DNA of 64,000 nt from an uncultured Acidobacteriota bacterium (lineage in GTDB: Bacteria > Actinomycetota > Acidimicrobiia > Spongiisociales > ZC4RG35): positions 66,620-130,619 of the forward strand of contig CAWHEU010000020.1 in NCBI GenBank assembly GCA_963828465.1, given 5' to 3'. A program made the position numbers and the translations under genes. Numbering within the stretch: the first letter of the stretch is position 1; each line of letters begins with the position of its first letter. The notes under the pieces were generated by a model. The model was not told where the DNA came from. It did no database searches and saw only the letters and a list, made by a program, of their open reading frames with translations. Positions 1,844 to 18,993 of this stretch are shown piece by piece.

Positions 1844-1876
1844 ACTAGACCACAGAGGCGTTCCGCCATCGTTACG
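1844..1876 (-). promoter_or_regulatory. Heptamer direct-repeat promoter (CGTAACG-atgg-CGGAACG-N9-TCTAGT)
   Basis: Same geometry as five other sites; the -10 here is weak. Confidence 0.6.
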
Positions 1877-1903
1877 GGCGACTTCGTCCCGGCTCGAGTA
1901 GCT

Positions 1904-1936
1904 GGTGACCATGTCGTAACGCTCCTCGGGCACAAT
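1904..1936 (+). promoter_or_regulatory. Heptamer direct-repeat promoter (GGTGACC-atgt-CGTAACG-N9-CACAAT)
   Basis: 11-bp period repeat followed after 9 nt by a -10-like hexamer, upstream of the oxidoreductase. Confidence 0.65.
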
Positions 1937-1945
1937 CATGGGCAT

Positions 1946-16109: not shown

Positions 16110-16215
16110 GGCCCCCGGCACGGAACAGCTCGCGATCCGTTCCGGCTTGACGACGAAGTTCTCATAGCCGTAACGATGCGAACTACCTTTGCACCGCCGA
16201 CCCAGGTTCTCCTTC

Positions 16216-18957
16216 ATGCTCGATATCAAGTTGCTCGGCCAACCCGATGTGTCCATATCCGGACGCCCCGTCGTGGTCGACACCCGCAAGGCCATCGCCC
16301 TCCTCGCCTACCTGGTGGTGGAGAAATCAGCGAGCAGGGACACGTTGGCCGGCTTGTTCTGGGCCGATGCCTCCCAGGAACGGGCTCGGGCGACACTGCG
16401 CCGGACCCTGTCAGCCCTGCAGGGGGCAACCGGGACCGAACTCATCGATGCCGACCGAAATCTCATCACGCTCGTAGGCGACGTCAGCTCGGACCTCGAC
16501 ATCCTGAAGCGGGAGTTGGAGGCCACAAGCGAGCATGGCCATGACTCCCGCGATGTTTGCGACCGATGCATCCCGCATCTGCGCCGCGCCACCAGCCTCT
16601 ATCGGGGCGACTTCCTCGCAGGCTTCTCCGTCAAGGCGTCACCCGAGTTCGACGATTGGGTGAGGAGTGTCGCCGAGTCGACCCGGATTCGAATCGGTGA
16701 GGCGTTCAACCGGCAGGGAACTGCATTGGCGGCCGCCGGCGAGTACCCCGCAGCAATCAACGCCGTTGCCCAATGGATCGAGCTCGACCCGCTGCACGAA
16801 CCGGCACACCGCTTTCTCATGCTGCTCCACGCTTGGGCCGGTGACCGGCCCGGCGCCATCGAGGCATATCGCAACTGCGTGACCATTCTCGACCAGGAGC
16901 TCGGGGTTGCCCCTCTCGAGGAGACGACCGAGCTCTACGAGGCCATCCTCGACGAAGACCTCCCGCCTGCCCCGGGCGCTCCGCGAAGGGTTAAGGCCGA
17001 GATCGCGACTCGACGTCAGCCACGGCCTGACTTGATCGATCGGGAGGCCGAGCTCGTCCAACTGCAGGAGGCGCTGGGCAGCACCTCGAGCGGAAGCGGG
17101 CTCGTCTTCGCCCTGACCGGAGCCCCGTGGATGGGGAAGACACGTCTTCTGGAGGAGCTGGCCTCGATCGCATCCACAGACCGGGATGTCCTGATCGGCC
17201 GCGCTTTCCGAATGGAGCAGACTCTGCCGTACGGGGTCGCCGCCCAGGTCCTTGGCGGTGCATCCGCCCGAATCGATGCCCTGCGGGACGAGCTCCCGGA
17301 ATGGGCCATGAATGAGCTCGGCAGGCTCTCGCCCGGATTCGCCCCGGCTGCCGGCGAGACGACTCACGACCGATTCGGCGAACTGCGGCTGCTCGAGGGG
17401 ATCCAAACGGTGATGTCCGTCCTGGCCCGAGAACGTCCGATGTTGATCATCCTGGACGACGCGCAGTGGATGGATACGTCATCCGCAGCCCTCTTCTCCT
17501 ACCTGGCACGTCGCATCTCGGAGATGCCGGTGGTCATGGTGGTGGCGGCCAGGGCGGAGGACGATCTCCTCCCGGCCGTCGCCGAGATGATGGCTGCGGC
17601 GGATCAGTCGGCTGCCATGCGCCCGCTCACCCTCCAGCACTTGCTCCCGCTGGTGGGCGGTGACGAGAACGCGGCAAGGCGGCTCCGGGAGAAGACCGGA
17701 GGTGTCCCGCTTCTCGTCAACGAGGCCCTCGCCAACGATGTCGACACGCTGCCCGCCACCCCCGGCATGGCGCGATACATGGAGGCGCGGCTCCTGGAGA
17801 TCGACGATCTGGGCCGGCAGATCCTCACGGCGGCGGCGGCGCTCAACGGCATCTGTGACGCGACCCTCCTCAGAGAGACGAGCGGGCGAAGTGAGGAAGA
17901 AGTGGTGGAGGCCGTCGAGGAGCTCGTCGCCGCCGGACTACTGAGGGAGATCCCCGAATCAGAAGGTCTCAGCTTCACGCTCGATGCGCTCGAACGGGTC
18001 ACCTACGAAACGACCTCCATGGTCCGGCGCCGTCTGCTCCATCGTCGTGCCGCCCGTGCCCTGGCCGAACGGGGGTATTCCCGATCCGATGCCCGGCTCG
18101 CCGCGGCCGTCGCCGGGCAGTATCGAGCGGCGGGCGATCCCGAGGCGGCGGCCTGGTACCACCTTGCCGGGGATTTGGCCCAGTCGATGTTCGCCAACGA
18201 GTCCGCTGTCCAGTTCTACGAAACCGCTCTCGCGTTGGATGACCCCGACATCTCCGGTGCCCGACTCGCTCTCGGAGAGCTGGCCATGGCCGGCGGAGAT
18301 TACGACCGGGCCCGACGCGAGCTGACCCTGGCCTCGTCAAATGCCGGCCCGGATTCCATCGGTGTCATCGAGCATCGGACCGGTGAGGTCGAGCGTCTGC
18401 TCGGCCGGTTCGAAGACGCCGAAGAGCATTTCCAGCGATCCATCGAGAATCATCCGGCTCCGGCGGCCGTGCTCGCCGACTGGGCGCTCCTGGCGTACCG
18501 AACTGGAGATGGGGCGAAGGCGGTGACCCTGGCCGGCCGTGCCAGAGATGCCGCCGAGCGGGAAGACGATCCTGCCCAGATGTCCCGGGTCCGCAACATC
18601 CTCGCCGTGGTGACGTCCGATCACGACGAGGCGTTGGAGCATGTCGAGGAGGCGATGCGTCTCGCTCGTGACGACGATCTGCTCCGCATGGCCGCCCTGA
18701 ACAACAAGGCGCTGTTGCTATCCGACAACGGGGAGACCGGTCGTTCGATCGAGCTCGTCGAAGAGGCCATCGCCATCGCGGAGCGGACCGGGCACCGTCA
18801 TCGGGAGGCCGCGCTCTGGAACCACATGGCCGATCTCCATCATCGCGCCGGCCGGGAGAACGATGCGCGTCAATCTCTCACCACCGCCGTCTCACTCTTC
18901 GCCGATATCGACTCGGGCGACCTGGAGCCCGAGTTGTGGCTCCTCTCCCGTTGGTGA
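16216..18957 (+). CDS. SARP/AfsR-like transcriptional activator (wHTH-BTAD-AAA ATPase-TPR)
   Basis: KAIALLAYL...SRDTLAGLFW wHTH; LYRGDFLAGF and DPLHEPAHR BTAD; Walker A GAPWMGKT, Walker B LIILDDAQW; TPR-like C-terminus. Confidence 0.9.
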   Translation: MLDIKLLGQPDVSISGRPVVVDTRKAIALLAYLVVEKSASRDTLAGLFWADASQERARATLRRTLSALQGATGTELIDADRNLITLVGDVSSDLDILKRELEATSEHGHDSRDVCDRCIPHLRRATSLYRGDFLAGFSVKASPEFDDWVRSVAESTRIRIGEAFNRQGTALAAAGEYPAAINAVAQWIELDPLHEPAHRFLMLLHAWAGDRPGAIEAYRNCVTILDQELGVAPLEETTELYEAILDEDLPPAPGAPRRVKAEIATRRQPRPDLIDREAELVQLQEALGSTSSGSGLVFALTGAPWMGKTRLLEELASIASTDRDVLIGRAFRMEQTLPYGVAAQVLGGASARIDALRDELPEWAMNELGRLSPGFAPAAGETTHDRFGELRLLEGIQTVMSVLARERPMLIILDDAQWMDTSSAALFSYLARRISEMPVVMVVAARAEDDLLPAVAEMMAAADQSAAMRPLTLQHLLPLVGGDENAARRLREKTGGVPLLVNEALANDVDTLPATPGMARYMEARLLEIDDLGRQILTAAAALNGICDATLLRETSGRSEEEVVEAVEELVAAGLLREIPESEGLSFTLDALERVTYETTSMVRRRLLHRRAARALAERGYSRSDARLAAAVAGQYRAAGDPEAAAWYHLAGDLAQSMFANESAVQFYETALALDDPDISGARLALGELAMAGGDYDRARRELTLASSNAGPDSIGVIEHRTGEVERLLGRFEDAEEHFQRSIENHPAPAAVLADWALLAYRTGDGAKAVTLAGRARDAAEREDDPAQMSRVRNILAVVTSDHDEALEHVEEAMRLARDDDLLRMAALNNKALLLSDNGETGRSIELVEEAIAIAERTGHRHREAALWNHMADLHHRAGRENDARQSLTTAVSLFADIDSGDLEPELWLLSRW

Positions 18958-18960
18958 GCC

Positions 18961-18993
18961 CGTAACGCTGCCGTACCGCACCACCGAAAGTAT
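18961..18993 (+). promoter_or_regulatory. Heptamer direct-repeat promoter (CGTAACG-ctgc-CGTACCG-N9-AAGTAT)
   Basis: Near-perfect direct repeat upstream of the lipoprotein gene. Confidence 0.7.

Follow-up and report, generated by a model that had tools for sequence, protein, structure and literature searches.

A stretch of 64,000 nucleotides from an uncultured bacterium of the Acidimicrobiia (G000:C20:66620-130619, i.e. contig C20 of genome G000; 3.07 Mb, 64% G+C, 29 contigs), here called the window, carries six promoter sites of common design around the gene of a large regulator of the SARP family. The signature shared by these sites, two heptamers in direct repeat just upstream of a -10-like hexamer, is confirmed to exceed chance. 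We consider it probable that all six serve a single regulon as promoters that depend on an activator, with the adjacent large SARP as the most likely candidate. That this SARP binds the repeats, where transcription starts and that the outcome is activation rather than repression we infer; the whole would constitute a SARP-driven sensory/envelope regulon.

All six sites, termed P1 to P6, follow the layout heptamer-N4-heptamer-N9-hexamer with a start codon downstream, and each contains one perfect CGTAACG (Table 1). The positions, strands and letters given for them in the original prediction were all correct when read back from the sequence, as was its claim that each site heads a transcription unit. 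The SARP-type architecture that it had proposed, with heptamers at an 11-bp period just upstream of the hexamer, is likewise present at all six. P2 and P1 are arranged back-to-back. P5 is the promoter at the head of a tandem array of genes for seven-transmembrane (7TM) proteins and is divergent from the regulator gene; the last gene of the array ends in a stop codon that overlaps P4's distal heptamer. A lone CGTAACG had been reported before the regulator gene itself. The element exists and is conserved (see below), though not in the canonical promoter layout: the partner repeat is degenerate (..CTAC.), and a -10-like hexamer is absent at N9.

Table 1. Promoter sites, genes and other features of the locus. 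Positions refer to the window unless a contig is named; scores are in bits of the six-site matrix; aa, amino acids.
Feature	Position	Strand	Details
P1	1845..1876	-	CGTAACG(1876-1870) atgg CGGAACG(1865-1859) N9 TCTAGT(1850-1845); score 20.7
P1 leader		-	short; GGAGAAAGG Shine-Dalgarno; TTG start at 1818
P2	1904..1936	+	GGTGACC atgt CGTAACG N9 CACAAT; ATG 1946, 9 nt past hexamer; score 14.9
P3	4552..4584	-	TGTACCG cttt CGTAACG N9 CAGAAT; in-frame GTG 4544, 7 nt past hexamer; score 18.5
P4	6981..7013	-	CGTAACG attt CGGGACG N9 TAGAAA; ATG 6973, 7 nt past hexamer; score 17.9
P5	16077..16109	-	CGTTTCA ctta CGTAACG N9 CAATCT; ATG 16068, 8 nt past hexamer; score 15.4
P6	18961..18993	+	CGTAACG ctgc CGTACCG N9 AAGTAT; score 20.8
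P6 leader		+	25 nt; GGAGAG Shine-Dalgarno; ATG 19019
Lone CGTAACG	16169..16175	+	41 nt ahead of regulator ATG
Inverted repeat	16121..16144		cGGAACa-N(7-10)-CGTTCCG; between P5 and lone heptamer
Large SARP-type regulator	16216..18957	+	913 aa; winged helix + BTAD + AAA_16 (STAND/NOD) + TPR
7TM tandem array	7009..16068	-	eight ~372-aa paralogs with conserved cytoplasmic C-terminal region; overlaps of few bases; behind P5
GAF-PP2C(SpoIIE)-HATPase_c_2 (RsbW-like kinase) fusion	5384..6973	-	529 aa; behind P4
Two STAS genes (anti-sigma-antagonist-like)	5043-5384, 4678-5046	-	Pfam STAS 7.9e-10, 8.5e-13; phosphatase operon
Solo 7TM paralog	3330..4544	-	BLASTP 36-56% identity to array members; behind P3
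FAD-dependent oxidoreductase (amine-oxidase/phytoene-desaturase-like)	1946..3340	+	Pfam NAD_binding_8, Amino_oxidase; behind P2
227-aa protein	1135..1818	-	no Pfam or NCBIfam match; behind P1
156-aa hydrophobic protein	654..1124	-	second gene of P1 unit
7TM paralog	1..657	-	extends past window start (G000:C20:66095-67276); start 657 overlaps 156-aa gene stop by 4 nt
255-aa predicted lipoprotein	19019..19786	+	signal peptide ending ..LAAC; behind P6
Second SARP	C18:183432-185516 (L001)		winged helix, BTAD, protein-kinase-like domain

The layout can be compared with that of known SARP promoters. According to PMC10936776, direct repeats at such promoters recur every 11 or 22 bp, 8 bp separate the 3' repeat from the -10, and the afs box of AfsR spans -40 to -19, with an upstream repeat at -40..-30 and each AfsR protomer contacting the first 8 bp of its own repeat. 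The review PMC10972967 adds that heptameric repeats of SARPs overlap the -35 and refer to a 'classical 11-bp' unit. At each of the six window sites the repeats form a 7+4+7 unit 9 nt before the hexamer. Where +1 is assumed at a start codon lying close behind the hexamer, the heptamers fall at -40..-34 and -29..-23. The predicted layout agrees with the SARP/afs-box layout within 1 bp, and the overlap with the -35 depends on these assumed starts.

To assess how far the signature exceeds chance we counted both the heptamer and the composite site. The window holds 12 copies of CGTAACG where 3.0 would be expected, and none of 100 shuffles reached 12; ten of the 136 copies in the genome (both strands) lie between window positions 1870 and 18967. 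Three of these ten (10437, 11502 and 13856, + strand) are antisense to a conserved coding motif of the array paralogs, ...F-N-R-S-R-Y-D-A..., and were rejected as promoter elements, so that the six sites and the lone copy remain. A matrix built solely from the six window sites, and scored as two heptamers 11 bp apart, was then run over the genome and over ten third-order-Markov genomes. Matches of at least 15 bits numbered 30 (mean 12.2 and maximum 19 in the simulated genomes), those of at least 17.5 bits eight (mean 2.4, maximum 5) and those of at least 20 bits four (mean 0). P2 (14.9 bits) and P5 (15.4 bits) fall within the chance range, which limits what the enrichment says about them. Because the six sites themselves served as training set of the matrix, neither of these two is significant by itself; both depend on their position and conservation, and for the same two reasons the case as a whole rests on features independent of the matrix.

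Outside the window the scan found six further sites, at C8:21373(+), C2:48830(-), C18:200880(+), C26:105244(-), C26:103352(-) and C25:109670(+). Five of them lie directly upstream of paralogs of the 7TM family or fragments thereof, as identified by BLASTP, and the sixth precedes a beta-lactamase-family gene on C26 that adjoins a 7TM paralog. Start codons at the C18, C2, C8 and C25 sites are found 6-7 nt past the hexamer. Counted from the side of the genes, there are about eight 7TM-family transcription units outside the window, five of which have a site, with the beta-lactamase-family unit as an extra; the units on C9 and the 665-aa 7TM-GAF-cyclase fusion on C25 have none. The C2 and C8 sites are near-identical copies and were counted as one. 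The idea that the locus forms one co-regulated system is supported by these outside sites, by conserved footprints, by co-occurrence with the regulator and by the fold of the regulator, but the system is not confined to 20 kb and extends to at least five other contigs. One further match, C24:21075(-) with a score of 17.9, was discounted as a probable false positive, since the hexamer found at N9, AGGTTC, has no A as its second base. This match lies inside a repeat family ahead of an ArsR-type gene that has its own palindrome, and it fits the ~2.4 chance matches mentioned above.

The regions C2:~47000-49000 and C8:~21200-23800 are near-identical in both promoter and flanks, and each carries a 7TM paralog. 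This reflects either a recent duplication or redundancy of the assembly, for which contamination is estimated at 4.8%.

Sites from distant relatives allowed the register of the hexamer to be examined. In a sample of 20 sites of at least 17.5 bits from nine distant loci, an A occupies hexamer position 2 in 19 sites at N9, in none at N8 and in one at N10. An ATG follows 6-8 nt past the hexamer in ten of the 20, eight have a leader of 15-22 nt with a GGAG-type Shine-Dalgarno sequence, and two fall clearly into neither class; at window sites P2-P5 the starts are 7-9 nt past the hexamer. Because start codons are so often located 6-9 nt past the hexamer, promoters with close start codons would give rise to leaderless or nearly leaderless mRNAs.

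The hexamer of P1, TCTAGT, is without A at position 2. Promoters of the class ahead of DUF1990-like genes (window 1845-1850; L019 2485(-); L059; L067 3023(-)) show TTCAnT or TCTAGT at N9 and a hexamer with A at position 2 two bases further on (e.g. CACTGT, CAATCG, TAGTGG). N11 may therefore be the spacing of these promoters.

The gene divergent from P5 encodes a protein with a SARP domain, an ATPase and TPR repeats, as the original prediction had proposed for a SARP/BTAD-ATPase activator. The BTAD lies directly after the DNA-binding domain (PF03704, E 1e-19, scoring 71.8 bits where the cut-off is 22.1; 77 bits in the whole-genome scan) and is followed by AAA_16 at residues 284-451 (1.8e-20) and TPR_12 (4.6e-20). 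With its central P-loop ATPase, C-terminal TPR part and a size in line with ~1000 aa, the protein has the build of the large-SARP subclass. Among the matches listed no NB-ARC-specific model appears for the ATPase, which is typed only as AAA_16/STAND-like. Residues 2-245 matched EmbR (2fez, E 7.8e-5) and residues 21-248 AfsR (8hvr_I) in phmmer. An AF2 model made from 14 orthologs (pLDDT 92.6) aligned to the SARP domains of AfsR and EmbR over 256-264 columns, and these two proteins made up the top six Foldseek hits (E 6e-12 to 6e-10, TM-score 0.71-0.74 by query length). These matches confirm the fold of a SARP domain, with an OmpR-type winged helix at the N-terminus. In the helix taken as the DNA-recognition helix all 14 orthologs have the same RRTLS sequence, a weak point since this motif is common in the SARP family. 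The regulator is not an AfsR ortholog, because its match to the NCBIfam AfsR equivalog (E 5e-17) reaches 61.1 bits, far below the cut-off of 1430.

Between winged helix and BTAD the regulator has an insertion of the form H-x-H-x5-C-x2-C (residues 107-118, window 16534-16569). H107, H109, C115 and C118 each persist in 90% or more of the 14 orthologs, and the loop is without regular secondary structure in the model. The insertion may serve as a metal- or redox-binding site.

We next compared orthologous loci, 12 of them close (regulator identity 73-93%) and 12 deeper (SARP identity 34-74%; here L036 is a duplicate of L022). P5 is present in 12 of the 12 close loci and P4 in ten, both misses having short flanks; P4 was also detected in distant loci, where it stands ahead of an identical MVQLM... 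start. P1 is found in L019 and L022, in which the SARP is 73% identical, with heptamers and hexamer kept and spacer and N9 changed, and P2 in the same two loci with identical heptamers and hexamer and a different N9. Sites homologous to P1 stand ahead of DUF1990-like genes in G240, and a site homologous to P3 is found in L017. P6 and its lipoprotein gene recur in one of the 24 orthologous loci (L020), a caveat for this site. In the deeper set, composite sites were detected in 11 of 12 loci, and in ten of 12 a composite site lies just 5' of the SARP gene and is directed away from it. Sites are thus retained, with diverging spacers, at orthologous loci where the activator is no more than 34-57% identical. 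The consensus of the clade is CGTAACG-N4-CGGAACG.

An alignment of the divergent intergenic region from 13 sequences shows the P5 hexamer, both its heptamers, an element GGAAC...GTTCCG and the lone CGTAACG to be invariant, the last of these in 13/13, while the stretch 3' of it has indels. The GGAAC and GTTCCG halves belong to the inverted repeat listed in Table 1, whose spacer varies in length. As CGTTCCG is the reverse complement of the heptamer variant CGGAACG, this repeat may be an extra SARP site, or it may be another factor's operator.

Such conservation bears on the possibility that the resemblance is simply inherited, i.e. that promoters were copied along with duplicated paralogs and have no common regulator now. 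Many targets are indeed paralogs of one family, and the two C26 promoters, as well as those on C2 and C8, are near-identical beyond the motif. However, sites also precede genes unrelated to one another (FAD oxidoreductase, SpoIIE-type phosphatase, DUF1990-like, beta-lactamase-family and lipoprotein genes), heptamers and hexamers stay fixed between orthologs while spacers and N9 diverge, and the A as second base of the hexamer shows strict position specificity. We consider simple inheritance very improbable.

To follow the motif and the regulator across species we searched 60 further genomes belonging to the same taxonomic family for the strict pattern CGTAACG-N4-CGKRMCG and for a SARP match at E<=1e-50. 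Both were found in 27 genomes, among them G221 (unpublished), the SARP only in four, the motif only in four and neither in 25. A control with the reversed pattern gave five matches as against 98. Ten more genomes have a match fewer than 300 bp 5' of the SARP gene, on the opposite strand, and in each of the genera g106, g6 and g10 one genome has both features and one neither. Among 20 matches examined (22 in total) in G086, G203 and G240, 13 precede homologs of window targets, namely eight 7TM family members, four SpoIIE-type genes and one DUF1990-like gene.

Several observations weigh against assigning the motif to this SARP. The genomes with SARP only are G209 (32% identity), G001 (split), G225 (partial) and G090 (variant sites), and the motif-only genomes have one match each and no SARP at the threshold used. 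In G186 the SARP ortholog has neither a site nor a family gene within 10 kb, and five matches occur elsewhere in that genome. The two-by-two table overstates the association, because related genomes are not independent samples. Moreover, five SARP-less genomes also lack the 7TM family; activator, motif and 7TM family are gained and lost together, so that co-occurrence alone cannot single out the SARP. What does single it out is that it is the sole protein with a detected DNA-binding domain among the proteins of the unit scanned with Pfam, together with the fold match and an operator of SARP architecture.

The same caution applies to the identity of the binding protein. The repeats could be bound by a different winged-helix protein, either an OmpR/PhoB-type response regulator or a second SARP, while the large SARP does something else. 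In the pho box of PhoB/OmpR-type regulators, 7-bp direct repeats with 4-bp spacers replace the -35 and are bound by tandem winged-helix domains, a layout shared by the sites described here. The genome encodes about nine proteins of the OmpR/PhoB type. Trans_reg_C (PF00486) has eleven matches in it, including the second SARP, and misses the DNA-binding domain of the window SARP at E<=0.01. On the other hand, the winged-helix protein linked to the sites is a SARP without receiver domain; neither a receiver-domain winged-helix gene nor any other OmpR-type gene is linked to the locus, where the response regulator encoded 3' of the SARP is GerE-type. A site lies directly 5' of the large SARP gene in most genomes examined. 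As for the second SARP, orthologs of it at E<=1e-100 are present in 17 genomes, of which 11 have the motif and six lack it; in G086 and G240, despite seven motif matches in each, the search at E<=1e-40 detected none. We judge binding by a different winged-helix protein unlikely, and this second BTAD protein was rejected as the regulator because its orthologs do not track the motif. In relatives, many paralogs of it lie within open frames reaching ~2000 aa.

The hexamer itself raises the question of the sigma factor. Only seven of the 20 distant sites have T at position 6, so that the -10 is not typical of a housekeeping sigma, and the hexamer tends to be preceded by GG. The sites could instead be recognition elements of an alternative sigma under the partner-switching module of the locus, the distal heptamer being its -35 and no activator being needed. 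SpoIIE/HATPase_c_2/STAS proteins, which in other bacteria regulate sigmas of the SigB/SigF type, are encoded here. However, the proximal heptamer at about -29..-23 would lie inside the spacer, and both blocks are versions of the same heptamer exactly one helical turn apart, which fits a protein binding in tandem and not a sigma factor. With a nearly invariant A as second base (-11), and with sequences like CACAAT, CAGAAT and CACTAT among them, the hexamers are in keeping with a -10 of the housekeeping type. The scanned proteins of the unit include no sigma factor, a search that did not extend to a cognate sigma genome-wide. Recognition by an alternative sigma alone thus appears quite improbable, and the large SARP remains our preferred activator.

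Among known systems, AfsR of Streptomyces coelicolor (PDB 8hvr, 8k60, 8jke) is similar in its order of SARP domain, NOD/ATPase and TPR as well as in the SARP-domain fold described above. The afs box of the afsS promoter likewise has two direct repeats with an 11-bp period over the -35, with the -40..-19 register on assumed starts and a weak -10. Unlike AfsR, the window SARP domain is only 21-22% identical to it and the repeat sequence differs; instead of afsS, the predicted targets comprise a dozen promoters in front of membrane-receptor-like and signalling genes, and the host is an uncultured Acidimicrobiia bacterium. EmbR of Mycobacterium tuberculosis (PDB 2fez) shares winged helix and BTAD (TM-score 0.74 by query length) and differs by a C-terminal FHA domain in place of NOD-TPR. 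ActII-ORF4, DnrI, PimR and other SARP-LALs are similar in having heptameric direct repeats, classically with 4-nt spacers, over the -35 of several neighbouring promoters (PMC10972967). The regulons of such pathway-specific SARPs are biosynthetic gene clusters, whereas none is evident here and the regulon is spread over at least six contigs. EmbR is a SARP that controls cell-envelope rather than antibiotic genes. We know of no comparable multi-promoter heptamer regulon for it, although we did not search the literature for one.

Based on these comparisons we propose the following mechanism. The two direct repeats would replace the -35 upstream of a weak -10 with its A at position 2, and two SARP domains, by analogy with AfsR, would bind them side by side and recruit RNA polymerase with the housekeeping sigma. 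The NOD and TPR parts would gate SARP activity in response to a signal. Predicted targets comprise about 17 paralogous 7TM receptor-like proteins (the 8-gene array and solo copies, also on other contigs), the GAF-PP2C-RsbW-like kinase with two STAS proteins, the FAD oxidoreductase, the DUF1990-like protein and the beta-lactamase-family protein; the lipoprotein would be a target in this strain only. We also considered a bolder scheme, which we hold to be rather unlikely and in which the locus would be a new kind of self-contained signalling system. Here dozens of output-less 7TM paralogs, fast-evolving and variable in copy number, would feed a GAF-PP2C-kinase/STAS partner switch that ends at the NOD-TPR part of the SARP instead of at a sigma. 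The SARP would in turn drive receptors and switch from sigma-adaptation promoters, giving a positive-feedback sensory regulon.

A large SARP with heptamer-repeat promoters is a known kind of system, and no known mechanism is overturned; new is a non-antibiotic, genome-scattered regulon in Acidimicrobiia. SARPs have so far been known almost only as antibiotic-cluster switches in Streptomyces and allies, and here a large SARP in an uncultured soil lineage with a small genome appears to control membrane-receptor-like proteins and a phosphatase/STAS switch. Among the papers listed by literature searches on SARPs in Acidimicrobiia, on heptameric SARP regulons and on CGTAACG we found no description of this regulon, which does not prove that none exists; judged by title, those listed for heptameric regulons all concern secondary metabolism of Streptomyces, and those listed for CGTAACG deal with other subjects. 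The operator has remained almost unchanged while the regulator diverged to ~35% identity, and the pair could be used for testing SARP specificity. SARP-type promoters would here be combined with leaderless mRNAs. Finally, the regulon provides a first functional handle on a large unnamed 7TM family.

This family has at least 1734 homologs, all unnamed or 'hypothetical', and neither it nor the 156-aa protein, the 82-aa open reading frame described below or the lipoprotein has a family in Pfam or NCBIfam. For the 7TM protein the ESM Atlas gave unnamed clusters only. The array proteins stay below the cut-off of HisKA_7TM (PF16927), their best scores of 26.6 and 23.5 bits falling short of 28.6; in most paralogs PF16927 has no match, and some database homologs carry a precomputed one. 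One paralog is fused to GAF and cyclase domains, which suggests that the 7TM proteins, themselves without an output domain, are a sensor module; they resemble a 7TM sensor module of this kind while scoring below the cut-off.

The head gene of the array appears to be split into an 82-aa open reading frame (15820-16068) and one of 317 aa (14867-15820), both on the minus strand. The former has a family-like N-terminus followed by sequence that looks out of frame, and the latter lacks the N-terminal ~75 residues; the first array gene of G102 is intact with 386 aa. The split is probably a frameshift or an assembly error. Among the window and loci L012-L023 the distance between the promoters of array head and phosphatase is as short as 3.0 kb in L022 and as long as 9.1 kb in the window, L020 and L023, and the copy number of the tandem 7TM array therefore changes between close relatives. 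From 8000 to 16000 the + strand of the window has an AT skew of +0.24 to +0.31, which probably reflects the T-rich codons of the hydrophobic array genes on the minus strand.

In the phosphatase fusion Pfam detects SpoIIE (4.9e-53), HATPase_c_2 (1.2e-18) and GAF (2.7e-07), and together with the two STAS proteins its PP2C and HATPase_c_2 domains make up an RsbU/RsbW/RsbV-like partner-switching set. The FAD oxidoreductase has partial matches to CrtI/CrtO-type NCBIfam models, all below the cut-offs. The 227-aa protein is probably DUF1990-like, a lead that comes from its nearest ESM Atlas clusters (score 0.96), and a homolog of it stands behind a motif site in G240.

The lipoprotein had been counted as a member of the system. 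Site P6 does precede its gene, but the gene is a strain-specific addition: window positions 18958-19855 are an insertion made up of the lipoprotein gene and its own SARP-type promoter, shared only with L020. In the other loci the regulator stop is followed directly by the sequence found past the lipoprotein gene in the window.

We also aligned a rhizosphere metatranscriptome, X1 (Logan contigs, share 0.08). The 115 short contigs that aligned do not reveal starts, strand or level, and DNA was possibly present in the library; 85 of them are only 90-95% alike and therefore derive from relatives. One low-confidence joint in X1, from 18962 to 19895 (side 21), matches relatives without the lipoprotein gene and is too weak to count.

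Two kinds of repeated sequence were seen near genes of the system. The regions C25:109230-110959 and C25:115308-117565 (L048) share a sequence resembling a tRNA 3' end, ..GGTTCGAATCC.., just 5' of 7TM-family genes, one of which is fragmented while the other encodes a 665-aa 7TM-GAF-adenylate/guanylate-cyclase fusion without promoter motif. A repeat family with the ends ...cccggatacgggcc...AACCTNAGGTT has 20 matches in the genome, including C9:49918/50024, C24:2253/2360, C25:102590/102697 and C25:161607/161714, i.e. four pairs of ends 106-107 bp apart. In the window (~4600-4672) one end lies between P3 and the STAS genes. This repeat looks like a miniature inverted-repeat element.

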